A DNA stretch of 33,932 nt from Clostridia bacterium (lineage in GTDB: Bacteria > Bacillota > Clostridia > Christensenellales > UBA1242). Of this stretch, positions 1,428 to 29,800 are shown in pieces (position 1 is the stretch's first letter; each line of letters starts with the position of its first letter). Where the stretch lies: the NCBI GenBank assembly GCA_028702545.1, contig JAQVOQ010000001.1, positions 1-33,932 of the forward strand, in the 5' to 3' direction. The translations under genes were made by a program, and so were the position numbers. A model generated the notes under the pieces. The model saw only the letters and a list, made by a program, of their open reading frames with translations, made no database searches and had not been told where the DNA came from.

Positions 1428-1438
1428 CTACATAACTC

Positions 1439-4507: not shown

Positions 4508-4509
4508 AA

Positions 4510-5115: not shown

Positions 5116-5117
5116 TT

Positions 5118-9747: not shown

Positions 9748-9752
9748 TAAAA

Positions 9753-10220: not shown

Positions 10221-10299
10221 AAAAATCATCTCCTAAATAATACCTTATTATAACTTAGCCGTAAACTTTTGGCAAGTAACCACACTTTTTATTAAATAA

Positions 10300-10328
10300 A
10301 AAAGCACTTATTTTGTTTAAGCGCTTTT
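10300..10328 (-). terminator. Rho-independent terminator after gap
   Basis: Stem aaaagcactta / taagcgctttt (one G-U pair on the minus-strand RNA), followed by a U-run on the minus strand. Confidence 0.6.
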
Positions 10329-10342
10329 TATTTTGAAAATTT

Positions 10343-11371
<1,029 letters not shown>

Positions 11372-11428
11372 TTAAATTACTTATTTATTGTAATCAATAA
11401 TTGCGTTTTTGGCAAATAAAAAACCCGT

Positions 11429-12547: not shown

Positions 12548-12621
12548 AAAAAAACTCCTTATATATTTTAAGTTTAGGTTTTGTATATTTAGTTATTAAT
12601 ATTCTTATTTTTTAAGGGTTT

Positions 12622-13437
12622 TTATAAATCGCCTCTTGATTTTATAATATCTTTAACGAGCAAATATCCACTTAATAAAATTGCTCCAATAGATAGTGCT
12701 AAAATTAAAAAGTAATAACCTATGCCATTATTTAAAGCCAATATAGCGTTAGTAAAAACTAATGATAATATTAAAAACAACAAACTAACAACTAATGAGG
12801 AAACACCTCTTTTAATATTGCTATTTTTAAAATCCAGCAATTTTAAATCTTGTTTATTTTGTTCTTCTAACAACTCTATCATTTCAATATTATAACCCGT
12901 CAAAGTGTCAAAGTTCCTAAGATATGCATTTTTGTCATTCAAACTCTTGATAACTTTTACTGCATCTTGGTTAAAATACTGAAAAGTATTGCTACATATT
13001 AAATCTTTTTGTAATCCTAAAAATTTTAGGTAACTATGGTAGGCTTTAATTAACAAATTAAATAAATATTTTTTAATTTTAGACTTTTTATATGTATTTT
13101 TATATAGCACTATATTATCCACTGATTTTTTGTCAAAAATTTTTGACAAAATTTGTTGCCAATTTTCATTTTCAAAATCTAAAATTATTACAGCACCCTC
13201 ACTAAGTTGTTCAAACCCTTTTGCGATTAAATGGTTACTCGCTTGAAAAGGCGTTTCAATCAATTTATAATTTTGTGAATTTCTGTAATTTTTGGGTTTT
13301 TCAAAACATTTGCATGCAACAAAAAATACATTAAACTCATCTTCATACTTTTTTAAAAAAGCCTTAAGTTGCTTAGTTTTTTTACTTAAATCATAATTGT
13401 TTGAAACGATAGGTATTATAATGTTAATTTTTTCCAT
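12622..13437 (-). CDS. hypothetical membrane protein. The N-terminal region faintly resembles a GT2 fold. It has C-terminal TM helices.
   Basis: The start was reassigned to the internal ATG at 13437 ('MEKINIIIPIVSNN'), which has an AGGAGA RBS. The C-terminus 'VSSLVVSLLFLILSLVF...YYFLILALSIGAILLSGYLLV' is hydrophobic. The family is not recognised. Confidence 0.45.
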   Translation of the reverse strand: MEKINIIIPIVSNNYDLSKKTKQLKAFLKKYEDEFNVFFVACKCFEKPKNYRNSQNYKLIETPFQASNHLIAKGFEQLSEGAVIILDFENENWQQILSKIFDKKSVDNIVLYKNTYKKSKIKKYLFNLLIKAYHSYLKFLGLQKDLICSNTFQYFNQDAVKVIKSLNDKNAYLRNFDTLTGYNIEMIELLEEQNKQDLKLLDFKNSNIKRGVSSLVVSLLFLILSLVFTNAILALNNGIGYYFLILALSIGAILLSGYLLVKDIIKSRGDL

Positions 13438-13563
13438 AATATTTCTCCTACTATCATTATAAATTATTTTTTTTTTATTTAAAAGTAAATTGACCACTAA
13501 ATTTGTTAGTAGTTATTAAAAAAATGTTTTATAATTAAAATATATTACAATAAGAGAGGTTTT

Positions 13564-14484
13564 ATGGGCTTAACTAACACAAAATTAATGCTAAACAACG
13601 CTTATAAAAAAGGCTATGCAATTGGAGCATTTAATTTTACTAATTTAGAACAATTGCAAGCAATTTTAGAAGTTTCTGTGCAGGAAAATAGTCCTGTTAT
13701 TGTGGCTACCTCCATTTCGGCAATAAAATATATGGGCTTAGATGTGCTTGTCGCTATGGTAAAAGCTTGCACAAAAAATTTAAAACAAAGCGTCGCACTC
13801 CATCTTGACCACGGCACAACTTTTGAACACTGTAAATCAGTAATAGATGCTGGTTTTACTTCCGTTATGATAGATGCTAGCAGTTTGAACTTTGACGATA
13901 ATGTATCCCTTACAAAGCGCGTCGTGGACTATGCTAGGTCATTCAATGTAACAGTGGAAGCAGAACTCGGCAAACTTGCCGGCATTGAAGATGACATTAG
14001 TAGTGCTTTTTCAAAATACACAGACCCTATGGATGCAAAAAAGTTTGTTGAACTAACGGGCGTTGATAGTTTGGCGGTGTCAATTGGCACGAGCCACGGA
14101 GCTTATAAATTTAGTGGCAAACCAAGTTTGCAAACAGAACTTTTGGCTCAAATAAAAAAACTATTGCCTAACACTCCCCTTGTTTTACACGGTGCGAGCG
14201 GTATATCTCAAGAATTACAGGATGGATTTTCTAAAAGTGGTGGTAGTTTAAGCGGTGCAAAAGGCATTAGTGACTCCCTTATAACAAAAGCTATTGAAAA
14301 TGGTATTGCGAAAATTAATGTTGATTCCGACCTTAGAATTGCATTAACAACTGGTGTAAGAGAGGCTTTAATTAATAAAGAAGAATTTAACCCGCGCACT
14401 TATATGTCAAATGGAAAAAATAAAATGAAAGAAATTTTAACTTATAAAATAAAAAATATATTTAATAGTAAAGATAAAAATTAA
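13564..14484 (+). CDS. fba: class II fructose-bisphosphate aldolase
   Basis: 'GYAIGAFNF.NLE', 'SPVIV', 'ALHLDHG', 'VEAELG', 'IGTSHGAYKF' and 'LVLHGASG'. Confidence 0.95.
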   Translation: MGLTNTKLMLNNAYKKGYAIGAFNFTNLEQLQAILEVSVQENSPVIVATSISAIKYMGLDVLVAMVKACTKNLKQSVALHLDHGTTFEHCKSVIDAGFTSVMIDASSLNFDDNVSLTKRVVDYARSFNVTVEAELGKLAGIEDDISSAFSKYTDPMDAKKFVELTGVDSLAVSIGTSHGAYKFSGKPSLQTELLAQIKKLLPNTPLVLHGASGISQELQDGFSKSGGSLSGAKGISDSLITKAIENGIAKINVDSDLRIALTTGVREALINKEEFNPRTYMSNGKNKMKEILTYKIKNIFNSKDKN

Positions 14485-14522: not shown

Positions 14523-14771
14523 TTAGTCTTCAATAATTTCTCTAATTTCTTTTATTTCTTCAAAACTTAGTGTCTCTAGCTTATTAATCATTTCTTTATA
14601 AGCTAATTTCAAAACTTCTGGATAATCTTTTCCATCTTGAACCTTAGTAGATGCAGACTTTGCAAGTGCCATAATATTAGCTTTTGTAGTTAATGGTCTT
14701 AACATAATAATGTCTTCTAAAACTATAAAACTAAGTTCTATCGCTTTTGTATTAATATCATTCATCATCAT
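14523..14771 (-). CDS. small acidic hypothetical protein (last gene of the T4SS-side block)
   Basis: 82-aa ORF with a GGAGGT RBS 9 nt upstream. It lies 38 nt downstream of the 633-aa gene and is probably co-transcribed. No family was recognised. Confidence 0.5.
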   Translation of the reverse strand: MMMNDINTKAIELSFIVLEDIIMLRPLTTKANIMALAKSASTKVQDGKDYPEVLKLAYKEMINKLETLSFEEIKEIREIIED

Positions 14772-14809
14772 TTTATTTTACCTCCATTTGCAATTATATT
14801 TCATCTAAA

Positions 14810-16711
14810 TTATCTTTCATTTGAACTGTCTTTTTCAGTTGTTTTAACAGCAGCTGATAACATCTTTTTAAAATGGGTATCTGGTGTTAAAGTACAATTA
14901 GATTTATAATAATAATCTTTAAATAATTTATAGCCTCTTACATGAAAATTGCCATCCCTGCATTGATATTCTTTAGGATTTTTATCAATATCTGCTATCA
15001 TTTCTTTATATAAAACATTTGCCACCTTATTCATATCAACGCCACTTTCTTGGCATTTTTCAATATAGCACTTGCTGTATCTCATTGCAGGAACTTGAGA
15101 TAATTTAATTTTTCCAAGTAGATTATCGGATAAAAACTTTCTTAATTTTTCTTTTGCTACTTCTGCATTTTTACCATTTTTATCCGTTAAAGGAATTTGA
15201 TCTGTTTTTGCTTCTGCTTTTGCCTCTGTTTTTTCTTTGTCAGTTAATTCTTTTTGTTTAGCGGCTTCTTTCATAAGTCTTTTATATAATTCTCTTTGTC
15301 TAATAATATCTTGTTCTGCAGAAGATATATTAACTTTTTCTTCCTCTTTATTAAACTCCTTTTGTGCTTTAAAGTCAAAAGAATATTCGGCTTTTGAAAA
15401 AATTAATTCATCAATAGATTGAGCATTTTTTACATTCCTGCCCGTTTTAGCATAAAGCTCTTGTAATTTGTCAAAATCTAATAAGCCTGCTTCTTGATAA
15501 TTATTTTTACTTACTTGCAAAACTTTTTCCGAAATATAAGGCAATATCCAACTAGAATGTATTTTTGGTATTCTTGCAAGTTGCATAGAAGCTTGAAGTT
15601 GCAAATGATCTTCAACTTTTTTAAATGTAGTGCCTTCCATATAAATTCTTGCTTGATTTATTGTGGATAATAATGAAATAACTTCATTTAATGTATTTTT
15701 ATATTCAATAAACTTTGCTTTATCTTTCTTTAAATTTTTATAAGGATTAAAATTTTCGCCTTCTTCATTAACTGTTCTAGAGATAAAAAATTTTTTTGCC
15801 TCCCTATAACTATCGTCAAAAATAAATAAGCGCTTTTTTGTTAAAGCTTTTTTATTTAATTTATACATAGCAGAAACAGCAATTTCAGTATTGCTCAAAC
15901 TCTCATCCGAAATTAAAATATTTTTTCTGTCTATTACAACATCATCGGCTTGTGCATAAATTTTAGTCGTCACATCAAGTTTATATTTTTTTGCTTTAAG
16001 CGATTCAATAAAAGCATCATATTTTGGAAAATTTCTCTCTTGCTCATTTAGAATTGGCTCATTAGTATAATAATCTTTAATTGGCATTTCTAAAATATTG
16101 TTATATTTATAAAACTGAACAGATGCCCAGTCATAAACAGGTTTTTCTATATCAGATGGATTTTCTTTGTTATAAAAAGATTTAGCATCTCTTGCCAAAA
16201 ACAAACCTTTTGCTCTAATATCTTCTTCAGTTAATAATTGGCTATTATCAATTTTGTTTTCTTGAATCCTCTTATATTGTGTTAGGGCAACAAAATCACT
16301 AGCACTGTATTTTTCTTGCTTAAATGCAACTCTTCGAGCTACTTTTTCAATTTGAGGCTTATATAATTCAAAAATACTTACCATTTCTTGATTTTTTGGT
16401 TCTATATCATAATCATAAGCTTCCGTAATAAAGCTAACTAATCCATCAAAAGTATTAAAAGGAATGCCGCTATATTTTGATAAAAAAACACCTGCATTTC
16501 TTTCGTTAATATTATTATCATGTAAAACTTTAACTACAATATTTTCCAAATTAGCGCCTGAATTGGCAATATCTTTATCTTCTTTACTCTCTCCAAGCAT
16601 AGTAAAAGCATCCCAGCCAGCATTATATAAATCTTCATATTTTTTTGGCATTGGACTGAAATGACCTCTATGTCTTAAAAATTGTTTTTCTTGTTTTTTG
16701 TTTAGTTCCAT
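14810..16711 (-). CDS. large cytoplasmic hypothetical protein associated with the T4SS cluster
   Basis: 633-aa ORF with an AGAGGT RBS. It has no TM segment or signal peptide. A Lys/Glu-rich coiled-coil segment ('RELYKRLMKEAAKQKELTDKEKTEAKAEAK') is followed by a C-terminal Cys/His cluster (C-x4-C ... C-x5-H). The family is not recognised. Confidence 0.6.
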   Translation of the reverse strand: MELNKKQEKQFLRHRGHFSPMPKKYEDLYNAGWDAFTMLGESKEDKDIANSGANLENIVVKVLHDNNINERNAGVFLSKYSGIPFNTFDGLVSFITEAYDYDIEPKNQEMVSIFELYKPQIEKVARRVAFKQEKYSASDFVALTQYKRIQENKIDNSQLLTEEDIRAKGLFLARDAKSFYNKENPSDIEKPVYDWASVQFYKYNNILEMPIKDYYTNEPILNEQERNFPKYDAFIESLKAKKYKLDVTTKIYAQADDVVIDRKNILISDESLSNTEIAVSAMYKLNKKALTKKRLFIFDDSYREAKKFFISRTVNEEGENFNPYKNLKKDKAKFIEYKNTLNEVISLLSTINQARIYMEGTTFKKVEDHLQLQASMQLARIPKIHSSWILPYISEKVLQVSKNNYQEAGLLDFDKLQELYAKTGRNVKNAQSIDELIFSKAEYSFDFKAQKEFNKEEEKVNISSAEQDIIRQRELYKRLMKEAAKQKELTDKEKTEAKAEAKTDQIPLTDKNGKNAEVAKEKLRKFLSDNLLGKIKLSQVPAMRYSKCYIEKCQESGVDMNKVANVLYKEMIADIDKNPKEYQCRDGNFHVRGYKLFKDYYYKSNCTLTPDTHFKKMLSAAVKTTEKDSSNER

Positions 16712-16812: not shown

Positions 16813-19482
16813 TTAATCGTTGTCTTCTACTTCTTCTTTTTTAAGTTTTTCAAACAAATCTCTAACCGGTGGCAAGGCGACAATACTAACCCTTGTCCTG
16901 CTTATTGGGCTAGTTATCAAGAAGGCTTCACCTCTACCAGCTGTTGCAATATTATCTTGCTCGTCTTCGTTAATTCCACCAGCGTTTCTATAAAGTGCTA
17001 CTAAATCGCTCATATCATTTGGTGATAAACCAAATATCATAGAGTATTGGCTCGCATTAATAACAGCAGCAGATTGTTTTGCAATTTCTTCACTACCAAC
17101 AAAGTCTTTAATATTTTGAGTGATTATTATCTGCATACCAGAATATTTTCTAATACGCTTAGCCATTGTTTCCATAAAGTTAAGTGCTATTGGATAATCT
17201 TTGTTAATAAATACGTGTGCCTCATCAACTGTTATAATAACCTTACGCCTATTAGGGTCTTCTTCTCCAAAGCCCATCATAGTGTTAAACTCTTTATTTT
17301 TGATAATTTCGTTGTTTAGATATCTCAAAACTAACATCATTTGTGCATTTGCTATAACCATATTATTGTTAGATAATAGCGACCTAAAACTAAATGTAAC
17401 AAAGTTTTCTTTAGTTTCTAGGGTTGTTAGTCCATTCCAAAGATTGGAGTTTCGTCCACCTGTTGAGAATTTTTGAATATAAGTTTCAATAATTTGATAC
17501 ATTCTTCTTATGTATTCATCTTTTTCTTCCTGAGCTTTTTTATCTATAATTTTATATAAATCATCAAATACTGGAAAGTCACTGGGCTTTAACTTGGTAA
17601 TATCAGTTGCCTGATTTATGCCTTTTGATGCGTACATATCAGATACTAAAGTATTAACTTTTTCAAAAGCATCCGATGAGATTCCTTGTAAAATTACCCT
17701 AAAAAATTGCTCTAAAAACTGAAGATGCGAAGAATAATCATCCGTCATCGTTACTCCTTCACCTTGAAGAGATGGCGTGATATGAAAAGGATTAATACGA
17801 CCTTGCAAACCCGTTCCAACGTCTATTGCTTGACCTTTAAGGTTTTCGGTTAAAATTTCATACTCATTTTCTGGGTCAAGAATAAATATTTTGCTGTTAT
17901 CTGCTGCTAAATTGCTAAGTAGAGTTTTGGTAGCAAAGCTTTTACCACTACCAGATTTACCAATTATCATCATATTAGAGTTAACGCGCTCGTTATCCCT
18001 TCTAAAAAAGTTTACAAAAACTGGTCCAAAATCGTTATGTCCTATATAAAATCCACCTTTATCCATAAGTGCACTGCTAATAAATGGGAAAGTAGCCGCT
18101 AGTGATGAGGTGTGAATACCTCTTTTGTTTTGATTTATAGTGTCCAGTCTGCTAATATTAGAACTTATAAAACAATCCACTTGCCTACCAAACATTTCCG
18201 TATATTTAAAACCCTCTTGCTTTAACAAGATTCTAACTTCCTTTTTCATCTCATCTTCACAAGTTATATAGATATTTACATCAAATAAATTCTCATTTCC
18301 TGTTTTTAATTCAACCAACAATTGCCTCAATGTAGAAAGGTGAGTTTCATTTTCAATTTGAGTACTTGTTTTAACAGAATATAATGTTTTTGTTTCCATT
18401 TCTACAAGCGCTTTATCTATCATTTTTTCTGCTTCATATTTTAATATTGGCTTAATATTAACTACTACTTTTGTATTAGGAAGTGCAAACATAGCATATG
18501 CCCATGCATTTCTAACCGTAATAGGATAATCTGTTATGCCAAAAGTACGATAAGATTTTTTATCTATAATAGTTTGATTCGCTTTAAAAGTAATATTTTT
18601 TGGCATTGTCCAATCAATAACTTTATCCATTGGCATACCTTCAAGTTCGCGCTCATCAAAGTCTTTTGTATAATTCGCCTTCAAAAACACTGCAAGCTGT
18701 TTATCTTGCAAATAATTAGTGTAAATAGGAATAGAACTATTGACCAAGTATCCAATAATACCATCAACAGTAGATTGTAAACCCAGTTTGTCGCTATCAT
18801 AAATAACCAAATAAAAATGGTCCCTATAAGTCCTCTCAACACTATTTATATAGTTCATAGTAGAAACACGGTTTTCAAAAACCATACTTCTAGCCTCAAC
18901 TTCTTCTTTTGAAATTTCGCCCCTATCGCCCATCTCTAAAACAACTTCATACTTACGGTCTTCATTTTGTATATAATCATCAAGAAGAAGTGGCTTATTA
19001 ACTTTTATCAAACTAGCCGTTTGTGAAGAATTAAGCCTACGAAGAGCATTTGCAAAGGTGTCAATTAACAAATTTTGCTTTTGTTCTGTCAATAAAAAGA
19101 ATTCTTTTGGTTTAATTTCTATTACTTGTGCAAAATAATTATCATATTTTATGTATTTACCGTTGACAATTTCTTTATATGGAATAAGCTCTTTAATATC
19201 GGTATGTTTATCTTCCTCTATTTTGCTATACTTTCTTTTAAATGCTGCAAATCTAAATAGTAGCACAAGCGAATAATAAAGTTTTAAATCATCTGTAACA
19301 GGTACAAATAAAGTAATTATTATACTAAGCCAGCTAACTGCAACGATAATATTATAATCAAAATTGGAACTCAAAATTAAAAGAAGTCCAGCGCCACCAA
19401 TTAACCCTAAAATAACATCAATTAATGTAACGCCTTTAAAGAATTCCATCTTTACTCTTGTTTTTCTTGGTATAAATCTCAT
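16813..19482 (-). CDS. VirB4/TrsE/TraE-like T4SS ATPase with a fused N-terminal two-TM (VirB3/PrgI-like) segment
   Basis: Walker A 'MMIIGKSGSGKSF'. 'IFILDPENEY'. Walker B 'KVIITVDEAHVFI'. 'MQIIITQNIKDF'. Residues ~18-75 contain hydrophobic helices (VILGLIGGAGLLLILS and IIVAVSWLSIIITLFV). Confidence 0.88.
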   Translation of the reverse strand: MRFIPRKTRVKMEFFKGVTLIDVILGLIGGAGLLLILSSNFDYNIIVAVSWLSIIITLFVPVTDDLKLYYSLVLLFRFAAFKRKYSKIEEDKHTDIKELIPYKEIVNGKYIKYDNYFAQVIEIKPKEFFLLTEQKQNLLIDTFANALRRLNSSQTASLIKVNKPLLLDDYIQNEDRKYEVVLEMGDRGEISKEEVEARSMVFENRVSTMNYINSVERTYRDHFYLVIYDSDKLGLQSTVDGIIGYLVNSSIPIYTNYLQDKQLAVFLKANYTKDFDERELEGMPMDKVIDWTMPKNITFKANQTIIDKKSYRTFGITDYPITVRNAWAYAMFALPNTKVVVNIKPILKYEAEKMIDKALVEMETKTLYSVKTSTQIENETHLSTLRQLLVELKTGNENLFDVNIYITCEDEMKKEVRILLKQEGFKYTEMFGRQVDCFISSNISRLDTINQNKRGIHTSSLAATFPFISSALMDKGGFYIGHNDFGPVFVNFFRRDNERVNSNMMIIGKSGSGKSFATKTLLSNLAADNSKIFILDPENEYEILTENLKGQAIDVGTGLQGRINPFHITPSLQGEGVTMTDDYSSHLQFLEQFFRVILQGISSDAFEKVNTLVSDMYASKGINQATDITKLKPSDFPVFDDLYKIIDKKAQEEKDEYIRRMYQIIETYIQKFSTGGRNSNLWNGLTTLETKENFVTFSFRSLLSNNNMVIANAQMMLVLRYLNNEIIKNKEFNTMMGFGEEDPNRRKVIITVDEAHVFINKDYPIALNFMETMAKRIRKYSGMQIIITQNIKDFVGSEEIAKQSAAVINASQYSMIFGLSPNDMSDLVALYRNAGGINEDEQDNIATAGRGEAFLITSPISRTRVSIVALPPVRDLFEKLKKEEVEDND

Positions 19483-19630: not shown

Positions 19631-21889
19631 TTATTTCTTATTGTCTGTATTGACTGTATCTTTTGTCTTGCTAATAAACTCCTTTAAGTCCTGAGCAATT
19701 TTTTTATTTCCACTTATTCCGCCATCATAATTTTTTAATTTATCAACATTCTTTTTCTTGTTTTCAATGATGTCGTCTAGACTTAAATCCAATGTTTTCA
19801 TAGCGCTTTCTAGCGTTTTTACCCCTTTTTGTTTTTGCTCATATTCTTTTGTATATATTTTTTCTTCTTGTTGTAATTTTTTTATTTGTGCTTTCTTTGC
19901 AGCAACAGTTTCTGGTGTTAAACCTCTTGTTCTTAACCCCTTATCTTCATTAATTTCATCTTTTATTGAATTAATTTCAGATTGAGTATTTGTAAGTTTT
20001 GCTTTACTCTCATCCACATATCCGCTCTTTGCTAAATTTAAAGTTGATTCTGCAGTAAGTGGAACATCGTTTGCTTTGTTGCTATCATCTGCACCACTAG
20101 TAGTACCTTGTTTACCTTCAAGCGCTTTAATCAGTTTTTCGTTTCTTAAATCAGCAGCTAACTCTGGTCTTTCACGATTTGATCTATCCTTTGTAGCTTG
20201 AGCAGCAGCAGATAACGGCATTAATTTATCAAATCCTAAGTTCTTTCCAAAACTAGATTTTTTAAAACTTTCAAAACGATCAGCTTTATCTTTTAAGAAG
20301 CCAATTCGATTGCCTTTATTATCTTTGCCAAATCCAGCAAAGTTTTTAGCACCTTTTGCAAACTTATTTCCCATATTGGCAGCATTCTTAAATGGAGTAA
20401 CAAGGCCTGCTCCAACTCCCTTTGATGCTGCTTGCATCCAGTTTAATCCATTTGCTCTTGAATTTTTGAAACCTGAGCCTACAGCCTTCACAGCACCTTT
20501 TTGAAGTGCAAAACCTGTAGCGCCAATGCCTGTTCCAAGTGCAACTGCTTTTGCTGCAGTTTTTGTAAACGCTTCTGCCTTACCAGCTCCATCTCCAAGT
20601 ACATCGCTTGCACCTATAATGTCAGCTAATTGTTTAGAAAAGTCTTTAAAGAATACTGCTCCTCCAATTAACATCAATAATTGTGCTATTAAATTAAATA
20701 CTTGATAAGTAACTGCTACTACGGCAGAAGTTTCCGAATCAATTTGGAAAAAATCTATTTGACCGAGTATTGGAATCAACATTATATAAAGATTCATAGT
20801 AACGATAACCGCATAAATACTCAAAGTGTTAGAAATAAATGCTTTTTTCCAATTTTTATAAGCATCTTCATTGATGGGTGTTATTGCAATAATTGGTGGA
20901 GCTATTATAAATAACATAACTAAAGCATAAATACGTTTAATTAAACCAAGTAATACCATTAACATAATCGTAAGTAGCATAATAGTTACACCAATTGCTA
21001 CAAAAAAGTTAAAGTTACTTAAATCATAATAATACCAAACCAAACTATAATCATATATTGAAAATGATTCTGGGTAATCTGGTAATCCTATCGTTTTGTA
21101 AACAAAGGACAAAATATCATTTAATGTAACAGGATCAAAGTCTTCACCAGTAGGTGCCAATGTATTATTTTGAAAAGCATTGTCAATTTTATCGGCAACT
21201 GTTTCAATAATAAAACCAGTATTAGTGTCCTCACTAAAAAGGCCAAAGTTATTCTTGGTAGATAAATCATCTAAAAATTCTTGGTCAAAAGGACCAACGC
21301 CCTCTCTTGCTCTATTAGATTCATAAGCAGCTGCTGCGAATATACGACCACTCAATTTTGAATTTGCACCACTAGAAGTCGCCATATCAAGCGTACTTAA
21401 AAGTGCATTACCTATAAATAACCCTAAAATTGCAACAACTGGAACAGTTGCAAAAATTGCAACGCTTTTTAATGATTTTCCTATTATTTTACCCTTACTA
21501 TTACCGCCTTTTGCGTCAAGCGGTTGATATTCACTTTTTATTACAGCAACAAAAGTTGAAATAAGAAGCAATACTATTGATAAAATAGCAAGTGACCAAA
21601 AAATATTCATTACGGCCTGATTGTTAATAATCTCTAATGCTAAATCTCTTGGTTGAGCTGTTTCAACACCATTAACTACATAATTTTCCAAGCCTGCTAA
21701 TTTTCTAAACAATAGTTGAATGACATCAAGTATTGTAGCAAAAGCCAAAAATATAGTATAAAACCAATTGGCTAAAAGGGCTAAATAACCATCAATTAAA
21801 TATTGAATCCAACCTGCGATACCACCGACTATACCATCTACTATGTCGCCAAGACCTGCAAGGTGGCTTATTCTCCATCCTAAACCCAT
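19631..21889 (-). CDS. polytopic membrane protein, VirB6/TrbL/TcpH-like T4SS channel candidate, with a long hydrophilic C-terminal extension
   Basis: 752 aa with a GGAGGAG RBS. At least 6-8 hydrophobic helices lie in residues 1-430. A Gly/Ala/Lys-rich segment follows ('GAGKAEAFTKTAAKAVALGTGIGATGFALQKGAVKAVGSGF...'), then a coiled-coil-like tail. The call rests on topology and its position next to virB4. Confidence 0.5.
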   Translation of the reverse strand: MGLGWRISHLAGLGDIVDGIVGGIAGWIQYLIDGYLALLANWFYTIFLAFATILDVIQLLFRKLAGLENYVVNGVETAQPRDLALEIINNQAVMNIFWSLAILSIVLLLISTFVAVIKSEYQPLDAKGGNSKGKIIGKSLKSVAIFATVPVVAILGLFIGNALLSTLDMATSSGANSKLSGRIFAAAAYESNRAREGVGPFDQEFLDDLSTKNNFGLFSEDTNTGFIIETVADKIDNAFQNNTLAPTGEDFDPVTLNDILSFVYKTIGLPDYPESFSIYDYSLVWYYYDLSNFNFFVAIGVTIMLLTIMLMVLLGLIKRIYALVMLFIIAPPIIAITPINEDAYKNWKKAFISNTLSIYAVIVTMNLYIMLIPILGQIDFFQIDSETSAVVAVTYQVFNLIAQLLMLIGGAVFFKDFSKQLADIIGASDVLGDGAGKAEAFTKTAAKAVALGTGIGATGFALQKGAVKAVGSGFKNSRANGLNWMQAASKGVGAGLVTPFKNAANMGNKFAKGAKNFAGFGKDNKGNRIGFLKDKADRFESFKKSSFGKNLGFDKLMPLSAAAQATKDRSNRERPELAADLRNEKLIKALEGKQGTTSGADDSNKANDVPLTAESTLNLAKSGYVDESKAKLTNTQSEINSIKDEINEDKGLRTRGLTPETVAAKKAQIKKLQQEEKIYTKEYEQKQKGVKTLESAMKTLDLSLDDIIENKKKNVDKLKNYDGGISGNKKIAQDLKEFISKTKDTVNTDNKK

Positions 21890-21999: not shown

Positions 22000-23712
22000 T
22001 TACTCTACTTGTGGAGTGAATGAAATATCTATAAAACCAAACCTAAACAATATTGGATTTGTGTTTATATCTCCGCTTAAAGATGTTGCACTAAAAACAA
22101 TCTCAAAAAAGTCAGTGCTATTATCATTATATTTTGCTAGACTTGAAACTCCATCTTCCGCTTTTTCTACTATAAAATAATCGGCGGCTGGCGTTGTGGT
22201 GTTTAAAACGACAGGTTCATCAAAACTTTCTGTGTTATTAGTAAAAGATTGCAAGTTAGAATTTGATAACCCATAAGTATTCAATATATCTTGAATATCT
22301 ATCTCAAAATCGTTGTCATTATCCGAAATATCATAAGCGCCGCCATTTATTAGTAAAGTAGTTAAAACATCGTCAAAAATTATTCCCTCGCTAACTTTAT
22401 GATAACGAGCAGTTATCTCCAAATTAAAACTTCTAGTTGATTCAAACGCTAACCAAACACTATCTAAACTAACAGCTTGACTGTTCATAAAAATTAAGCT
22501 TTTGTAACATTGCATACCCGTCGGTATAGTAAAAATTTCGTCTAAATTAGACTCAACATCGGCAAATATAAAATCTTGATATTGTATTCCTGCAATTTGA
22601 GGATATCTAACAGTGTTTTCGCTAATTGTCGTTATTATTGCATTTACGGTGTTGCGATAGTTTTTAAAATATTCATCTATAAAGTCGTAAGCACCACCTA
22701 ATGGCACTCCGCTATCCCACTCATCATTATTGTTCAAATCATTATATTTTTCGCCTGCATCAAACTGACCATTCGGTATTGAATCTATAAACTCCTCAGC
22801 ATCAAATAAACCATTATTATTTACATCAATAAATCTTTCAACATCAAATTCAACTAAGGTATTACCTATTACAACATTTAAAATAAACTGACCTAGCTTG
22901 TACATTTCTTCTTCTAGCATTCCAATATAAGTTATTTCTTTTGCAAAATTTTCTTTTAATGTTTCTTTTTCGCCTAAACTCAATTGAGTATAAGAAATAT
23001 ATTCGTTATAATCGCTCGTGCCAATTTGATATATGTTTTTGTTAAGCTTTAACATATAAATAGCTATTTGCAAATTGTCTGAATGAGCTGTTAAAAAAGC
23101 GTCAATATAATCGGCAGGATTGTAATTTTGAACGAGCGTCCAATTCCAAGTATAATATTGATCAACACCCGTATTATAATAATCTTTTCTTACAGCATCT
23201 TTATGTGCATACTTATAATCAACGCCGTAACTTGCTGGAACAGAGTCAAACGGCTCAAAGCCATCTGCATAAATATCCTCAAATTGTTGAATACCGTTCA
23301 CATAGTAATAAAGCCTATATCCACCTAATCCAATTCCGTTACCATATTCCGACATAAGTCTAATAATAACTTCTTTGCTCATAGTATTAATTTGGCTTTT
23401 AACATCATTTATATAACCGATTTTTTCTGGACTGCCCGACAAATCGCCCGACAAATCAGGATTATATGTTATTTTAACGCCATCAAAATAATCACTATAA
23501 GCATAGCTTTCCGTCTCACCTGGATTATATGGATCAAATGGGTCATCTGGGTCAACTGGGTCATCTGGGTCATCTGGGTCAACTGGGTCAACTGGAACAT
23601 AAATATCTCCTGTACCTCCGCCACTAGTACCGCCCGGAACACATCCTGTTAACATAATAGGACTTAAAATCAAAATAATTATTAAAGTAAAAATATAAAT
23701 TTTTTTTAGCAT
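22000..23712 (-). CDS. surface lipoprotein of the T4SS cluster
   Basis: Signal peptide with lipobox 'IMLTGC'. A Gly-rich stretch and a Pro-x-Asp tripeptide linker follow. An internal 'FIDVNNNGLFDAEEFIDSIPNGQFDAGEKYNDLNNNDEWD' resembles a set of Ca-binding loops. AAGGGGA RBS. Confidence 0.8.
   Translation of the reverse strand: MLKKIYIFTLIIILILSPIMLTGCVPGGTSGGGTGDIYVPVDPVDPDDPDDPVDPDDPFDPYNPGETESYAYSDYFDGVKITYNPDLSGDLSGSPEKIGYINDVKSQINTMSKEVIIRLMSEYGNGIGLGGYRLYYYVNGIQQFEDIYADGFEPFDSVPASYGVDYKYAHKDAVRKDYYNTGVDQYYTWNWTLVQNYNPADYIDAFLTAHSDNLQIAIYMLKLNKNIYQIGTSDYNEYISYTQLSLGEKETLKENFAKEITYIGMLEEEMYKLGQFILNVVIGNTLVEFDVERFIDVNNNGLFDAEEFIDSIPNGQFDAGEKYNDLNNNDEWDSGVPLGGAYDFIDEYFKNYRNTVNAIITTISENTVRYPQIAGIQYQDFIFADVESNLDEIFTIPTGMQCYKSLIFMNSQAVSLDSVWLAFESTRSFNLEITARYHKVSEGIIFDDVLTTLLINGGAYDISDNDNDFEIDIQDILNTYGLSNSNLQSFTNNTESFDEPVVLNTTTPAADYFIVEKAEDGVSSLAKYNDNSTDFFEIVFSATSLSGDINTNPILFRFGFIDISFTPQVE
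23540..23595 (-). repeat. in-frame 9-nt tandem repeat (about 6 units: gggtcatct/gggtcaact) encoding a (P-x-D)n linker
   Basis: Direct reading gives gggtcatct gggtcaact gggtcatct gggtcatct gggtcaact gggtcaact. It translates on the minus strand to 'PVDPVDPDDPDDPVDPDDP'. Confidence 0.85.
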
Positions 23713-23839
23713 AACTTCCCCTTTAACATAGGTGCCGACTTTGATTTTATTCTTTTATTTAATTTAGTATATCACATTTTAAAAAAAATTCAAGAATATG
23801 TATAGTTTGTTTTAAAAAAATATTTTTAAAACACGAAAA

Positions 23840-23864
23840 AACCTAAGTCTACAAAACTTAGGTT
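23840..23864 (-). terminator. Rho-independent terminator after the VirB2-like gene
   Basis: Stem aacctaagt / acttaggtt with loop ctacaaa. On the minus strand UUUUU follows. Confidence 0.65.
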
Positions 23865-23892
23865 TTAGTTTATAATTTAAAATAATTGAGGT

Positions 23893-24252
23893 TTATGAAA
23901 TCCAAGCGCCTAAGTTAGCTTTAAATAATCCTAATAATAAAATTAAAACAATTGTAATTACAAGTGCAATAACTGCATTTATAATACGTTTTTTAGCCTC
24001 TTCTCTTTTGTCAGCAGTTTCAGCTTTTGCCATATTAACACCAAGAACAACCGCATAAATAGTTCCCGCTGTTGCAACAAAAATTAGTAGTGGTGTTAAA
24101 ATACCATCTAATGCACTCATGATTGGATTTAAGAAAGCAAGTGATCCCGTAAATTGTTCTGTTACTTCATCATAATAATCAGTTGCTCCCAAAAGACTTC
24201 CACCTGTTAAACCTGTTACAAAGGTTGCAATTTTAAATAAAAGTAAGTTCAT
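23893..24252 (-). CDS. VirB2/TrbC-like small T4SS membrane (pilin-like) protein
   Basis: 119 aa with an AGGAGG RBS. It has a signal-like N-terminus ('...GGSLLGA/TD') and then two hydrophobic helices separated by a charged loop, 'MAKAETADKREEAKKRIINAVIALVI'. This architecture is typical of Gram-positive/CPR T4SS pilin-like proteins. Confidence 0.55.
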   Translation of the reverse strand: MNLLLFKIATFVTGLTGGSLLGATDYYDEVTEQFTGSLAFLNPIMSALDGILTPLLIFVATAGTIYAVVLGVNMAKAETADKREEAKKRIINAVIALVITIVLILLLGLFKANLGAWIS

Positions 24253-24533
24253 TATAATTTCCTCCTGATGTTGTGTAACTAGCTTATTCTTAGTTTTATA
24301 AAATTAAAAATAACTATTCAATAAAACACAAAAATATTTTCAAACTAAGTTAATTATCATTATTTTAGCACATAAAATAAAATTTGCAAACTTTTTAAAC
24401 AACAAAAATTTAAAAAATTTAAAAAATTAAAGTTTAAATTAATTTGGCTTTTAAATTAATTTATGCTATATTATTTTTAGTTATTTTAAACTTTTTTATA
24501 CTTAATTCTAAAAACAAGAAAAGGGGAATTTTA

Positions 24534-26570
24534 ATGGATAGATTTATAAAATTTGTTATTAAGTTCGTTGCATTAATCGTTATATCCTTTGGAATAGCAG
24601 TAATGATAAACTCATTTTTAACCTTTGGAACCTTTGAATTTGAAGTTACACTTTTAACAGATTCAATGACGCTAACGATTGCGGCACTACTAGTTTTGTG
24701 CATTGTAATATATTATTTGAACAAATTAACAAAAGAGGATTCCTTTAGTGGCACATCCTCTCATAAAAGCCGAACAAAAGATGGTAAAGATTTAGAACAA
24801 TACTATAATTCTCGACTAATTAACGAAAAAGAACTTAAAACGGAATCTAAATTTATGTATCATTTATATGGAAACCTAAAAACCTCTAAAAAAGATGGTA
24901 TTCTTATTAGAGCAGAATATAAAGGTAAAAAACTTCATGTAAATATGTATAAACCTATTCACGCAATGGTTGTAGGAACTACCGGCTCTGGTAAAACAAC
25001 AACTTATGTTAGCCCCACAATTCAAGTTTTATCTGAGACTGCCTCTAAACCAAGTATGATAATCTCTGACCCTAAGGGCGAGCTTTATGATATGCACGCA
25101 AATAAATTAAAAAATTCTGGTTATGATGTTCAAGTTATTGACCTTAGAGAGCCCGATAAATCAGCGCGCTGGAATCCACTTGATAGAGCCTATGATTTTT
25201 ATCAAAGAGCACACAATTTGACTAGCGAGATTTTAGTTCATAGAGCTTCTAATCCAAATAAATTTCCAAAACTTCAAAAAATGAACAGCGTTAGTTATGG
25301 AGAGGAATGGTATGAGTTTGACGGAGTAGCCTACCCCGACAAAGCAACGCTAAAACATGCAATTACAGCACTTAATGCTAAATTAAAAACTCAATCAGCA
25401 AATGAAGTTGAAGATATCGCCTTAACTCTATGCCCTGTTACAGGACAAGACCCTATGTGGAGTATGGGTGCACAAGGCTTTATTAAAGGAATTTTGCTTG
25501 CAATGCTTGAAGATAGTTTAATACCGGAAGTTGGTATGACAAAAGAGCGTTTTAACTTTTATAACTTAGAAAAAATAGCAAGTAAAAGAGATATTAATCA
25601 AAGTGATACACTAGAAACTTTAAAAAATTACTTTGCAGGGCGTGACAAATTATCCCCTGCAGCATCAGGTGGTAACAACGTTGTTCAAAATGCACCTAAT
25701 ACTGCAAAAGGCTTCTTAGGTCATGTAAACTCTTCAATTAAAATGTTTACAGATGCCGGTGTTTGTTATCTTACAAGTGCAACAGATATTGACTTTAAAA
25801 ACATTGCAACAAAACCTAGTGCAATATTTATTAAAATTCCTGATGAAAATGCAACTCGTCACCCACTTGCAAATATTTATATCAGTCAGCTTTACAAAAT
25901 TTTAATTGAACTTGCAAATGAAAGACAAGAACTATCACTTCCAAGAAATGTTTACTTCGTACTAGACGAGTTTGGTAACTTACCAAAAATTGAAAAAATT
26001 AAAAGTTTTGTTACAGCAGGTCGTAGTAGAAGAATTTTCCTAGTAATAGTTGTACAAAGTTTTACACAGTTAACTTCAGTTTATGGAGAACAAGATGCAG
26101 CGACTATTAAAGAAAACTGTAACATTCAAGTATTTATTGGAACAAAAGACCAAAAGACAAAAGAGGAATTCAGTAAAAACTGTGGAAACGTAACCGTTGA
26201 AATAGAAAACAAATCAAAAAGTAATCAAGCAGGAACTAAAGAGCAACACGGCAGCACTTCAACAACTACTAGTTCAAACACTGTTTCTCGTCCACTTATT
26301 TATCCTGAAGAACTTGACCATTTAGACAGAAGCAAAGGCGAAGCAATTGTTAATATGTTCTCAGAATTTAGTATAAGAAGTATATTTACACCTACTTACA
26401 AATGTCCAGTTTATGATATGCGAAGAGTACCTGAGGTATACAAACCATCTGGTTATCTAAATGAACAACAAGTATATTACGATGTTGTTAATAGAAACAA
26501 CATTGTTTTAGGTAGCGGAGATGATGATGACGATGACGATTTTGACTTCTTTAAACCTAAAAAGAATTAA
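24534..26570 (+). CDS. VirD4/TraG-family type IV coupling protein
   Basis: Two N-terminal TM helices. Walker A 'MVVGTTGSGKTTT'. 'MIISDPKGELY'. Walker B 'YFVLDEFGNLPKI'. 'AGRSRRIFLVIVVQSFTQL'. The start was moved from the track's TTG (24444) to the ATG at 24534, which is preceded by AAGGGGA. The C-terminus is acidic (seven consecutive Asp). Confidence 0.88.
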   Translation: MDRFIKFVIKFVALIVISFGIAVMINSFLTFGTFEFEVTLLTDSMTLTIAALLVLCIVIYYLNKLTKEDSFSGTSSHKSRTKDGKDLEQYYNSRLINEKELKTESKFMYHLYGNLKTSKKDGILIRAEYKGKKLHVNMYKPIHAMVVGTTGSGKTTTYVSPTIQVLSETASKPSMIISDPKGELYDMHANKLKNSGYDVQVIDLREPDKSARWNPLDRAYDFYQRAHNLTSEILVHRASNPNKFPKLQKMNSVSYGEEWYEFDGVAYPDKATLKHAITALNAKLKTQSANEVEDIALTLCPVTGQDPMWSMGAQGFIKGILLAMLEDSLIPEVGMTKERFNFYNLEKIASKRDINQSDTLETLKNYFAGRDKLSPAASGGNNVVQNAPNTAKGFLGHVNSSIKMFTDAGVCYLTSATDIDFKNIATKPSAIFIKIPDENATRHPLANIYISQLYKILIELANERQELSLPRNVYFVLDEFGNLPKIEKIKSFVTAGRSRRIFLVIVVQSFTQLTSVYGEQDAATIKENCNIQVFIGTKDQKTKEEFSKNCGNVTVEIENKSKSNQAGTKEQHGSTSTTTSSNTVSRPLIYPEELDHLDRSKGEAIVNMFSEFSIRSIFTPTYKCPVYDMRRVPEVYKPSGYLNEQQVYYDVVNRNNIVLGSGDDDDDDDFDFFKPKKN

Positions 26571-26582
26571 TTAATCTTTTTA

Positions 26583-26610
26583 AAAACCTCATAATATTTG
26601 AGGTTTTTTT
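26583..26610 (+). terminator. Rho-independent terminator after the coupling-protein gene
   Basis: Stem aaaacctc / gaggtttt with a 9-nt loop, followed by a T-run. Confidence 0.7.
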
Positions 26611-26710
26611 ATTATTAAATTTTGAGAAAAACATAATTTAAATTTTGCCTTTAGCGTATTTTAAATTTACCCTTGTATATAATAAGTATATATTTATATA
26701 TATTAAATAG

Positions 26711-26739
26711 TTGTTAATAGAATTTTAATATGATAAAAT
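26711..26739 (+). promoter_or_regulatory. candidate sigma-A-type promoter for the giant ORF
   Basis: TTGTTA, a 17-nt spacer containing an extended -10 'TGa', then TAAAAT. It lies ~60 nt upstream of the ATG. AT-rich DNA produces such matches by chance. Confidence 0.3.
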
Positions 26740-26801
26740 ATATTAAATATTATGTTAAAAATAAGTTACTTAAGACAACCGATTAAGGAGAATACTAGTA
26801 T

Positions 26802-29800
26802 ATGAGAATAACTATAAAAAATAAAGGCTTAATAGTATTAATGTTTATAGTGGGCATGTGCACACTTATTGGTGGCAATATAATTTTTATGAATATTGGC
26901 ACAAATATAGCAGGTGCAGTAGAGGCCGATAATACAGTTCTTACGGTACAAAAAGTTTTAAGAGATGTTGACCAAAATGACAATGACATAACGAATGGTT
27001 ATTCTTATTTGGCGTCAACAGAGGTTGGCAACTATACGCACTTAAACTCTATTGCCAATGATGCTTTTGAGATGTTAAATAATAATGCAGCAGATGAATC
27101 TTTAATAGCCGGAACAGCGGTAGAAAATGTTAAAGTAGAAAACATATTAATTAAATTTGCAGATAGTTACGGAAATGGACTTCCTTGGTTAACGGCTTCT
27201 GCTTGGTTAAATGGAACTCCAATAGATGTTGGCTCAGCTATGATAATTGAAACAAATGGAGACAAAAAATTCACTCACTCACTTGACTTAAAAACATTAG
27301 CTACCCTTGAAGGTCAACCTATTGAAAATTTAGATGGTTACTATGAGTATCGCTTTAATTATTATTACAGAGATAGTTATGGTGCTACTTATGGCGAGTA
27401 TACAAAAACAATTGCATTTTGGCTTTTAGATGAAAACAAGTATGTTGACACAGCGCTTCAAAATAATATTATTCCTAAAATGTATAATACAGAAAAAATA
27501 AATAGAGATAAATATGACAAAAAAATAGAACAAAATTTTTTTAACTATAATAATTTTAATATGACCGATACTTACGACTCAGGCGAAGTCTTGTTATTGC
27601 CTACTTTAATCTATGACGCTAGTAGATACAATATTTCTTACACTAAGCAAATTTATGGTGTTACTAACACTATAACTTCTAGTTTTAAAATATTAGGTGA
27701 TACAGGTCAAGTAACTTTTTATTTAAACGGTGCAACCGCTCCTTTTAAAGCTGATTATGTTAATAAAACAACCGTTGGCGGAGTTGATTATTTCATTTAT
27801 GACGGACTAAACATAAATGATGTCGCCGATTATAATTTTACAGTCAAATATACATATAGAGTTTCAGATACAAATTTTGTTATCGCTACAACAGGTAGTA
27901 TATATGAGCCAAGCACTAGAGGTAACAATGTTTTGTTGTCAGTTTTTGGCTATCAATCATATTACTCAAAAAATAACACAGAGGATGCCGAATTTAAATA
28001 TAGCGACGAAACAACAACTATCATAAGCGACTATACAAAAGATAATCAACTTTACATAGAAAATTATGACACTACTAGTTATAGAAGCGGCGAACTATTT
28101 ACCGATGCAAATGCAGATGGCGTTTATAATCCAGCAGAAGAATTTACCGATGCAAATTCAAATGGTGTTTACGATTTTGCCGAAGAGTATGTTGACGCAA
28201 ACGGAAATGGTGTTTACGACCCTGCTGAAGAGTTTATTGATGCAAATGGTAACGGAGTATATGACACTTTAGCTCTGCAAATTAATGGTACGCTAGCTAG
28301 CACAAATCAAGCACCTGTATTTTTAAAAAGCTATGGCTCGCTAAAATATGATTCAACTTTCACTTCTTCAAGGTCTTTTTACTATTACTATTCAAGTGGA
28401 ACAAAAACTGGTATTCCTCAAATAATACCTTACACAAATAATACTCGCTTTACACAAAACGGCTATTATGAAGTTGTTGTAATTTATGATTTTGAAAAAT
28501 ACCAATATATAAATAGTACTGACGATGTAACATCAGGCAATAAAGTTGCTCATATGCAAGTTTTTGCATTTAAGATTGCAAACATACCTCCAACGGTTAA
28601 CATTAAAACAGATACAAATCAAACGATAACTAGTGGCAAATATACAAATGCCCCTTATGTAACAGCAAACTGGACAGATATTGGCGTTTTTGATGTTGCA
28701 CCTAACGCTAGAATTTGGAGACAAAGTTTTGATGGTTATAATCCATATACTCAAAGTTCCCTATTTAATGGTTCTTATGATAACGTTAATGGACAAGTTT
28801 ATATTAAAGATAGTCAAATTGCAATTAGTGGTCACTATATACTACAAATCTTTTATGGTCCTTCAACTAATACCTCAATTATTTATAAATTCACAATAGA
28901 CCAAAGTGCTATTAGTGGCTTTAGTGTTTTAGGAACTAAAGAAAGCGTAGACGAAAACGACAATATAATTCCACTAAAAGACACAAGCCTTGATTTAACA
29001 AATAAAACTGTTATCAACACCCCCTTTACTCTAAATTGGAATTCAAAAACTTCAGGTGCTGCAATAACAGCAAAATATAGCATTACATCTATTGCCGAAA
29101 AAGCATCTTATACTCCTACTTTAATAGAGCAAAATGGTCAAGAATGGATAACCAATGGTTATCAAACACTAAACACATTTAATAATTTAACTTATTACAA
29201 AACAAACACAACAGGAACGGATATATTAAATCCAAACTCAGTATTAAAAAACGCTAGCATATATTATTTTACTTTAACGGATCAAGCGGGCAACTCTTTA
29301 AATTATTATGTTATTTTAGATGACTCGCAAGCTCAAATATTGCAAGACCCTGAGGCCGTTTCTAAATATAACTTTGTGCCAACTAAAACGACTATCACTT
29401 GGGGTACACATAAAGCTATTGAAATTTCTCCTACTTCTAACTTACCTGCTAGTATAACAACAGATAACCCATTATTTGATACTTACGCTGGTACGCTTTA
29501 TTTAATAGTACCAATTGAAGTGGTAAAAGTATACGCCGCTGGATTAACTGACTCTGACCAGTTAACAGTTGAAAATAGTTATGACTTAAGCGATATAGAA
29601 TCAAACAAAATAAGAACTTATACAAGGAATGTTAATTTTAGCAGTTCGGCAACTTTTTACACGGGCTTAGAGCCTTTTATTCCAGCAGGAAACGAAGATG
29701 TTACTGGCGAAAATATTTATAATACTTATGTGCTAGATTATTCTAGTACTACCCCCTTCACTAACTCAAGTTACAATAATATTTCTATGCTAGACTTAAA

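Follow-up and report, generated by a model that had tools for sequence, protein, structure and literature searches.

A 15-residue repeat of predicted EF-hand-type loops shared by a lipoprotein and a giant surface protein at a type IV secretion locus of a Clostridia bacterium

The window, a stretch of 33,932 nucleotides from a Clostridia bacterium (contig JAQVOQ010000001.1) to which our analysis of this genome was confined, contains a type IV secretion system (T4SS) block in which two genes encode the same short tandem repeat. One of them encodes a giant surface protein (26802..33932, plus strand) and is cut by the end of the window; its reading frame is open from 26799 to that end and, counted from the ATG at 26802, translates into at least 2377 amino acids with an N-terminal hydrophobic segment that would act as signal or anchor. 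The other encodes a lipoprotein of 570 amino acids (22000..23712, minus strand). The translated array region of the giant protein reads ELFTDANADGVYNPAEEFTDANSNGVYDFAEEYVDANGNGVYDPAEEFIDANGNGVYDTLAL. It contains four tandem 15-residue units of EF-hand-type loops at 28098-28277 on the plus strand (residues 433-492), which were recovered by translation, Tandem Repeats Finder, codon comparison and profile: unit 1, FTDANADGVYNPAEE (28098-28142); unit 2, FTDANSNGVYDFAEE (28143-28187); unit 3, YVDANGNGVYDPAEE (28188-28232); and unit 4, FIDANGNGVYDTLAL (28233-28277). All four are in frame at an exact spacing of 45 nucleotides and follow the pattern FxDANxNGVYDxAEE. Tandem Repeats Finder reported a period of 45, 3.4 copies, 75% matches and a score of 150. 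Units 1 to 3 present D/N/[ND]/G/Y/[DN]/E at loop positions 1/3/5/6/8/9/12, which makes a complete 12-residue EF-hand-type loop, with Asn at position 9 in unit 1, whereas unit 4 keeps positions 1 to 9 but ends in T-L-A-L, with Ala in place of Glu12, and is incomplete. A preliminary description of this DNA had assigned the EF-hand ligand positions to all four units. The assignment stands for units 1 to 3, including Asn9 in unit 1, and has to be dropped for unit 4, which lacks Glu12. The same description was right that the loops lack flanking helices, as only 2-3 residues separate one loop from the next.

Any two of the giant-protein units share 58-78% of their nucleotides and differ by 2-7 synonymous codons (GAT/GAC, AAT/AAC, GGC/GGT/GGA, TAT/TAC and GAA/GAG swaps), yet D1, N3, [ND]5, G6, V7 and Y8 are invariant across the units and every ligand residue is intact in units 1 to 3. 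Such synonymous divergence with intact ligand residues argues against a very recent origin of the array by slippage, and the array peptide appears, judging by the codons, to be under selection. Composition predicts about 0.003 matches per protein to the pattern D.[DN].[DN]G..[DN]..[DE]. We observed 3 in the giant protein and 1 in the lipoprotein, and none of 5000 residue shuffles of each protein contained more than one match. In a six-frame translation of the window the loop pattern was confined to these two proteins, with the exception of a bare DDDNDG near 474-491 on the minus strand. Together, the shuffles and the six-frame scan establish that the loop pattern is not a generic compositional feature of the window sequence. 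The bare motif lies in the acidic tail with which a DivIVA-like protein ends (465-1427, minus strand); it is the sole other D.[DN].[DN]G match in the window, and this protein scores 0.6 bits against the family profile described below, outside the repeat family. A feature or RNA on the opposite strand was also considered and rejected, since the repeat lies in frame within a 7.1-kb open reading frame (ORF) and no overlapping ORF reaches 80 amino acids.

The lipobox of the lipoprotein, LTGC, occupies residues 20-23; the protein further comprises an acidic linker of Pro and Asp, an N-terminal half that is helical and, at its C-terminus, a beta-sandwich. Searches with the full protein, and a profile search of the PDB, assigned it to no Pfam, NCBIfam or PDB family. 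Its array (22699..22833, minus strand; residues 294-338), whose peptide the preliminary description had quoted exactly, consists of three units, FIDVNNNGLFDAEE, FIDSIPNGQFDAGEK and YNDLNNNDEWDSGVP, spaced by 14 and 15 residues. Only the first of these forms a complete loop; the second carries Ile at loop position 3, and the third departs from the pattern twice, with Asp at position 6 and no Glu12. A three-unit array is kept at the same place in all five lipoprotein homologues that were compared (44-60% identity), with the consensus RFIDxNxNGxFDAEE-FVDxNxNGxYDxGEK-YNDLNxNGxWDSG. The last unit lacks Glu12 in every homologue, as does the last unit of the giant array. A scan of GTDB genomes for lipoprotein relatives found none. 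AlphaFold2, run on six sequences of the lipoprotein, gave a mean predicted local distance difference test score (pLDDT) of 44.2; in this low-confidence model the array is coil (pLDDT ~30) between helices at residues 283-292 and 344-364, and the beta-sandwich follows downstream at residues 392-566 (window ~22000-22540) with a pLDDT of ~70. This C-terminal domain showed a weak, generic Foldseek resemblance to CBM4, Fbs1 sugar-binding and CanA jelly rolls (TM score ~0.3-0.4), and possibly serves as a lectin-like head. A low-complexity linker rich in Pro and Asp, PVDPVDPDDPDDPVDPDDPFDPYNP (23520-23600, minus strand; residues ~38-65), follows shortly after the lipobox; the homologues have Gly/Asp/Thr-rich linkers of different length in its place.

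When homologues of the giant protein were searched for, the matches fell into two classes: full-length relatives, and unrelated large proteins that covered 2-5% of the query with up to 298 bits and repeated the same 15-residue unit dozens of times. From 157 in-register units we derived the family consensus [FY]-[TIV]-D-x-N-G-[ND]-G-[VI]-[WY]-[DT]-x-[AG]-E-x, with which the window units agree nearly residue for residue. A profile of four-unit slices (A2; 60 columns, 19 rows from unrelated proteins and the window array as the 20th row) was searched against 1.84 billion representative proteins, with clusters at 50% identity, and matched 3,052 clusters at E<=1e-3, 851 at <=1e-10 and 137 at <=1e-30. 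To guard against circularity, a window-free profile was built from the 19 slices and run on 78 six-frame window ORFs and on the homologue sets. It gave the giant array 86.3 bits and the lipoprotein array 38.8 bits, which correspond roughly to 1e-19 and 1e-5 in the 1.84-billion library when extrapolated from the bit-score and E-value pairs of A2. The five lipoprotein homologues scored 32-42 bits, and none of the other window ORFs exceeded 1.4 bits. Since, among the window ORFs, the giant protein and the lipoprotein alone rise above background against a profile free of window sequence, both arrays belong to one repeat family, and the claim of the preliminary description that the two proteins share the same repeat was correct. 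In length (15 residues) and in their P-A-E-E tail, the giant units agree with the general consensus of the family, unlike the 14-residue first unit of the lipoprotein. We considered whether the giant array had been copied from the lipoprotein gene, but the sequences are too short and too constrained to decide.

In the best 149 A2 proteins, the spacing between units was 15 in 855 instances, against 108 for the next most frequent value; the family period is thus 15, occasionally 14 or 16. Many of these proteins start with a signal peptide or a lipobox, and arrays of at least 50 units exist in secreted members. When units of the 149 proteins were anchored by aromatic-1, aromatic-10 and Glu-14 alone, D3 was present in 87%, N/D5 in 86%, N/D7 in 89%, G8 in 72% and D/T/N/S11 in 89%, compared to background frequencies of 7-10% for these residues. 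Conversely, of the units anchored by DxNxNG alone, 73% had E14, and position 10 was hydrophobic or aromatic in 82%. This reciprocal anchoring demonstrates that the conserved positions, among them the aromatics at unit positions 1 and 10, are coupled and are not imposed by the search pattern. The repeat occurs amid unrelated domains, including those of TonB-dependent receptors, AI-2E transporters, proteases and sensor proteins. As the motif is common in unrelated secreted proteins of other bacteria, we regard it as a promiscuous module that is not specific to type IV secretion. A further homologue search with the repeat profile returned 8 short fragments only, and essentially all cluster members carry no protein name or are labelled hypothetical. 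The family has variants, represented by P0060, P0099, P0018 and P0078: one comprises AGDTNGDGxIxxxEV 15-mers beside MBG_2 and YDG domains, another comprises arrays with an 18-residue period.

Neither Pfam nor NCBIfam has a model for the repeat. Searches of the two libraries with both full window proteins and with the isolated peptides gave nothing above cut-off, and the best Pfam match of the isolated peptides was a partial GEVED domain (21.1 bits, cut-off 24.4). The hidden Markov model check that the preliminary description had proposed came back empty, with EF-hand, TSP_3, TSP3_bac and Dockerin_1 all below cut-off on proteins and peptides. The long-array proteins P0009, P0010 and P0023 (30-50 units) had no Pfam or NCBIfam match over their arrays, nor had P0020 and P0024 in a Pfam scan alone. 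In a scan of 64 family members, EF-hand_5 was reached by only 3, EF-hand_1 by only 2 and Dockerin_1, weakly, by only 3. The EF-hand-matching members carry the variant unit AGDTNGDGxIxxxEV, with period 15 and Ile at loop position 8. Against whole-protein cut-offs of 25.9 bits for EF-hand_5 and 25.4 for EF-hand_1, P0060 scored 74.5 and 46.8 bits, respectively (A2 E = 4e-62), and P0099 scored 40.0 and 50.5 bits (A2 E = 3.5e-43). These EF-hand matches fall within the arrays and align with no more than the loop portion of the Pfam models; they pass the cut-offs by summation. Because A2 and the EF-hand profiles both match P0060 and P0099, they provide a transitive link from the window unit type to the EF-hand loop.

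The likeness to the EF-hand families (EF-hand_1, EF-hand_5 and EF-hand_6) resides in D1, N/D3, N/D5, G6, D/N/T/S9 and E12 of the 12-residue loop. Defined by oxygen ligands at positions 1, 3, 5, 9 and 12 with Gly at position 6, such a loop is present in giant units 1 to 3 and in lipoprotein unit 1 and is incomplete in giant unit 4 and lipoprotein units 2 and 3. In contrast to the EF-hand, a helix-loop-helix of about 29 residues that is usually paired and holds Ca2+ in pentagonal-bipyramidal geometry, the window loops stand head-to-tail with 2-3 residues between them, in an extracytoplasmic setting. The best PDB matches of the family profile were 3VDZ (E=0.013) and 2OJR (E=0.028), both ubiquitin with a double lanthanide-binding tag, which consists of YIDTNNDGWIEGDEL repeated with period 15; Entamoeba calcium-binding proteins and calmodulins followed at E>0.04. 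PDB sequence searches with the window peptide and with a 17-unit array returned only non-significant EF-hand proteins, and those with the giant protein and the lipoprotein profile returned no significant relatives. Lanthanide-binding tags (YIDTNNDGWYEGDELLA; PDB 1TJB, 2OJR and 3VDZ) share with the window units D1, N3, D5, G6, E12, an acidic position 9, an aromatic residue two positions before Asp1 and, in the double tag, the period of 15. They differ in being artificial and optimised for Tb3+, with Trp7 and Glu9, where the natural units have Val/Ile7, Tyr/Trp8 and Asp/Thr/Asn9.

The tags are isolated EF loops that wrap the metal via D1, N3, D5, the W7 carbonyl, E9 and E12 without helices (PMC11670062). 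Loops of the form Dx[DN]xDG bind Ca2+ in a nearly identical manner in at least 12 unrelated contexts, thrombospondin included, and some of these contexts have no regular secondary structure (Rigden et al., PMC3123361). Grafting of such a loop into CD2 created a Ca2+ site, and homologues often differ by the insertion of a motif-carrying loop (PMC3123361). In disordered proteins, EF-like motifs that have no helices take up Ca2+ at about 100 uM and compact the chain (PMC8391695). These autonomous calcium loops give background support for self-contained loop units. The chemistry of Dx[DN]xDG and EF loops is already well known. What is new is the contiguous arrangement of helix-less 15-residue loop units, present in thousands of clusters that have no curated model or solved natural structure, and the combination of an insertion in one protein with conservation in another within one T4SS locus. 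Our literature search, whose incomplete coverage makes it no proof of absence, found no description of natural 15-residue EF-loop arrays.

The preliminary description had placed the repeat closer to thrombospondin type 3 (TSP3) or dockerin loops, a view that we do not retain, as there is no profile match, no Cys and no room for a helix. TSP3 repeats are contiguous Asp-rich DxDxDG-type loops of extracellular proteins, nearly devoid of secondary structure, whose fold is organised around bound Ca2+. The window arrays resemble them in being contiguous Asp-rich loops of extracellular proteins. They differ from TSP3 units in length and in lacking the disulfide-bonded Cys: the arrays contain none, the giant protein has no Cys in 2377 residues, and neither window protein nor its peptides matched TSP_3 or TSP3_bac, so the assignment was rejected. 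The family member P0025 carries both repeat types, with TSP3_bac matches at 1716-1736, outside its 15-residue array at ~1296-1420. Type I dockerins are duplicated EF-like DxNxDGxxD loops of secreted Clostridia proteins that fold in a Ca2+-dependent manner, and they are thus comparable to the window units as EF-like loops in secreted proteins of Clostridia. However, a dockerin has two loop-plus-helix segments of about 22 residues that bind cohesin, whereas the arrays have 3-4 units at period 15 without a helix. With the wrong period, no space for a helix and no Dockerin_1 match on either protein or its peptides, the dockerin assignment was also discarded; no cohesin domain was found in any window ORF. 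The Excalibur and Excalibur-like motifs (DxDxDGxxCE) are likewise helix-less EF-like loops, but they are single motifs with conserved Cys and Glu at positions 9-10 and not 15-residue tandems with Glu12. Two more candidates were excluded, namely the RTX nonapeptide beta-roll (GGxGxDxUx), which has a different period and consensus, and the aromatic cell-wall-binding repeats, which gave no profile match, the ligand set conserved here being that of an EF loop.

The two arrays have contrasting histories. The giant protein matched nothing in Pfam, NCBIfam or the PDB by profile or sequence search, and its family, of 2400-3000 residues, is known from metagenomes only. Its closest orthologues, P0001, P0002 and P0003 (62%, 60% and 50% identity; 2424-2456 residues), align on both flanks of the array and leave a gap of ~55 residues at the array site, within a region that is itself variable in length among orthologues. 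None of 15 full-length or partial relatives contained a tandem array, although 3 of them each had one isolated D.[DN].[DN]G at an unrelated position. The more distant homologues P0004-P0008 and P0011-P0013 also lacked it, and orthologues scored at most 0.4 bits against the window-free family profile. We examined synteny at two loci: the gene order is VirB4, a 751-residue membrane protein, lipoprotein, pilin-like protein, VirD4, giant protein and rho at the P0003 locus, and VirD4, giant protein and rho at the P0001 locus. Given orthologues in syntenic loci without the array, the giant array is, by alignment, a lineage-specific insertion of ~55 residues into a variable loop of an otherwise conserved protein. 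The P0003 locus (L082, with P0003 and P0030; GCA_050178795.1) comes from an NCBI metagenome-assembled genome (MAG) labelled 'Spirochaetales bacterium', and the window's housekeeping genes are Clostridia-like; a binning or labelling error may be involved.

Housekeeping genes occupy 1-14484 of the window (a DivIVA-like gene, lgt, mazF, acpS, recX, a methyltransferase gene, tyrS, degV, mnmA, gap, an M29 peptidase gene and fba), and the T4SS block, recognised by Pfam and NCBIfam family matches, extends from 14523 to the window end (33932). The block starts with ORFs of 633 and 82 amino acids that have no Pfam or NCBIfam match (14523-16711, minus strand). They are followed by a VirB4-like ATPase gene (16813..19482, minus strand; Mbov_0397 / VirB4_plasma, 584.9 bits against a cut-off of 590) and a gene for a polytopic T4SS membrane protein of 752 amino acids (19631..21889, minus strand; MMCAP2_0566 / Mbov_0396 family). 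Beyond the lipoprotein gene lie a pilin-like T4SS gene (23893..24252, minus strand; Mbov_0395 family / T4SS_pilin) and, directly upstream of the giant gene, the gene for a VirD4/TraG coupling protein of the CD1115 family (24444..26570, plus strand). By these family matches the machinery is closest to the conjugation module of mycoplasma integrative and conjugative elements (ICEs). In the ICE of Mycoplasma agalactiae (ICEA), the surface lipoprotein CDS14 is essential for mating and probably initiates contact between donor and recipient (PMC6030558). Like the window lipoprotein, CDS14 is encoded beside pilin-like, membrane-protein and VirB4 genes, the Mbov_0395, Mbov_0396 and Mbov_0397 families being present in the window. 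The two are positional analogues by gene place and lipoprotein nature only, and no sequence relationship was detected. That two exported proteins of one T4SS locus carry the array, as the preliminary description had it, is supported by the hydrophobic signal segment of the giant protein, the LTGC lipobox of the lipoprotein, the presence of lgt in the window and the T4SS family matches nearby.

The block sits in a Clostridia-type chromosome, and two relatives (50-62% identity; loci L081 and L082) have the same block followed by rho; L081 also carries sporulation genes. No relaxase or integrase gene is visible in the window, and the block gives the impression of a chromosomal module passed on by vertical descent, rather than of a recent ICE. 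The tyrosyl-tRNA synthetase is at most 59% identical to that of any GTDB species representative, the best matches being uncultured Clostridia and Christensenellales-type MAGs. Terminator-like hairpins lie between the pilin-like and lipoprotein genes (23838-23866) and after the VirD4 gene (26582-26608), and promoter-like sites precede the giant gene (26666-26753), all as consensus matches only; transcription of the lipoprotein and giant genes may thus be independent of that of the channel genes. In the housekeeping part, a MazF/PemK toxin gene (3457-3798, minus strand) is preceded, with a one-base overlap, by an 82-amino-acid ORF without a family match (3798-4046), and the two are probably a type II toxin-antitoxin pair.

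We propose that the units are helix-less EF-type Ca2+ loops that bind one ion per complete unit and stiffen an acidic segment, in a conserved connector of the lipoprotein and in an accessory insertion of the giant protein; from the sequence comparisons above, we consider this reading probable. Each unit, [FY]-x-D-x-N-x-[ND]-G-x-[YWF]-[DN]-x-x-E-x, would be a self-contained loop of 12 residues joined by an aromatic-bearing linker of 2-3 residues. In millimolar extracellular Ca2+, each complete unit would wrap one ion with the side chains of positions 1, 3 and 5, the main-chain carbonyl of position 7, position 9 directly or via water, and a bidentate Glu12. Closure of the loop and packing between adjacent units would fall to the aromatics at unit positions 1 and 10. 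In this way, an acidic segment that is otherwise disordered would collapse into a stiff and compact chain of beads. The predicted sites are three complete and one partial in the giant protein, and one complete and two degenerate in the lipoprotein. In the lipoprotein, the array would form a conserved Ca2+-stiffened connector from the helical N-terminal half to the C-terminal beta-sandwich. The giant protein would carry it as an accessory feature of its lineage that decorates or extends an exposed variable loop.

Several observations weigh against this proposal. On the window peptides, Pfam gave EF-hand_1 14.4, EF-hand_6 11.5 and EF-hand_5 10.9 bits, well short of the cut-offs of 25-25.9. At loop position 8 the giant units all have Tyr, and the lipoprotein units have Phe, Phe and Trp, in place of the canonical Ile/Leu/Val; PROSITE PS00018 asks for I/L/V/M/C there. 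Two of the three lipoprotein units are degenerate in this genome, and the orthologues of the giant protein manage without the array, which makes any role there dispensable. The PDB matches of the family profile are statistically marginal, though mechanistically informative as sequence parallels, and isolated helix-less EF loops are usually weak Ca2+ binders. Metal binding, stoichiometry and the folding or stiffening role of the predicted sites are what we infer from the sequence data. The AlphaFold2 model of the four-unit array, computed from a 20-row repeat alignment, had a low confidence (pLDDT 60.9), was all coil without any helix and found no match with Foldseek. AlphaFold2 models carry no ions, and this all-coil, low-confidence outcome would fit metal-dependent folding and poor prediction equally, so we did not count it either way.

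We weighed the proposal of calcium loops against the possibility that the giant array is a functionally neutral insertion, an expansion or a transplanted module that a variable surface loop accommodates irrespective of any Ca2+ binding. In favour of this, no detected orthologue has the array, its position coincides exactly with the length-variable loop, the family's repeats have evidently been able to move or expand in many protein contexts, and the last giant unit is already decaying, having lost Glu12. However, units with 58-78% nucleotide identity and 2-7 synonymous differences have kept their ligands intact in units 1 to 3, which favours purifying selection over drift, and the array still scores 86 bits against the family profile. 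We therefore judge neutrality unlikely. A ligand other than calcium, either a glycan or cell-wall polymer held by the spaced aromatics, or a lanthanide, Mg2+ or Mn2+, would account for the aromatics conserved at unit positions 1 and 10, for a lanthanide-binding tag being the nearest solved sequence and for the weak, low-confidence likeness of the lipoprotein C-terminal domain to CBM4 and lectin-type jelly rolls. Yet the conserved D/N/G/E residues are the ligand set of the EF loop and no known glycan-binding signature, no match to CW_binding or other cell-wall-binding Pfam families was found, and Ca2+ is by far the most abundant suitable extracellular cation; such a ligand is very improbable.

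The preliminary description had also suggested calcium-dependent docking. In such a scheme, dockerin-like or Ca2+-bridged arrays would join the lipoprotein to the giant protein, or would attach either of them to a partner of the cohesin type, while the T4SS is assembled or mating pairs form. The repeat is indeed confined to two exported proteins three genes apart in one T4SS block, a co-occurrence unlikely to arise by chance for so rare a family, weak Dockerin_1 matches occur in 3 of the 64 family members, and mating in the related mycoplasma ICE system requires a surface lipoprotein (PMC6030558). Against this, the giant orthologues P0001 to P0003 are without the array (in the same gene order at the P0001 and P0003 loci), as are P0004-P0008 and P0011-P0013, while the lipoprotein homologues keep it; a conserved system therefore cannot depend on both partners carrying the array. 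The dockerin features are lacking as well, with no Dockerin_1 match, no cohesin in the window ORFs and no dockerin helices at a 15-residue period, and the repeat is common in many unrelated domain contexts. We consider docking of this kind very improbable. The presence of a rare module in two proteins three genes apart could reflect shared selection in the same extracellular setting, or one array could have seeded the other.

Beyond this locus, the repeat may represent a large undescribed class of natural poly-EF-loop proteins, with at least 3,000 clusters in diverse bacteria, whose helix-less 15-residue units, up to 50 or more in number, would each take one cation and fold only around the metal into a rigid wire, a natural counterpart of double and multiple lanthanide-binding tags. 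At the locus studied here, the module would have become a fixed part of the lipoprotein, serving as a Ca2+-switchable connector, and would recently have been transplanted or expanded into a giant adhesin-like protein. We advance this wider picture tentatively, as a conjecture with a little less than an even chance of being right. The repeat module itself is widespread and has been missed by domain libraries, and with a curated model, long stretches that now lack an explanation could be annotated in thousands of large secreted proteins of bacteria. If each unit does hold one ion, these arrays would be the densest natural EF-type metal binders, with one site per 15 residues, and would be relevant to the Ca2+-dependent rigidity of surface fibres and adhesins; their likeness to lanthanide tags makes them possible natural scaffolds for rare-earth binding. 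The presence and absence of the array among giant orthologues offers a natural example of a Dx[DN]xDG loop array inserted in a variable loop. For the Clostridia that carry this mycoplasma-ICE-like T4SS, a conserved calcium-loop connector in the lipoprotein leads us to expect that the surface machinery has a Ca2+-dependent, EGTA-sensitive step.

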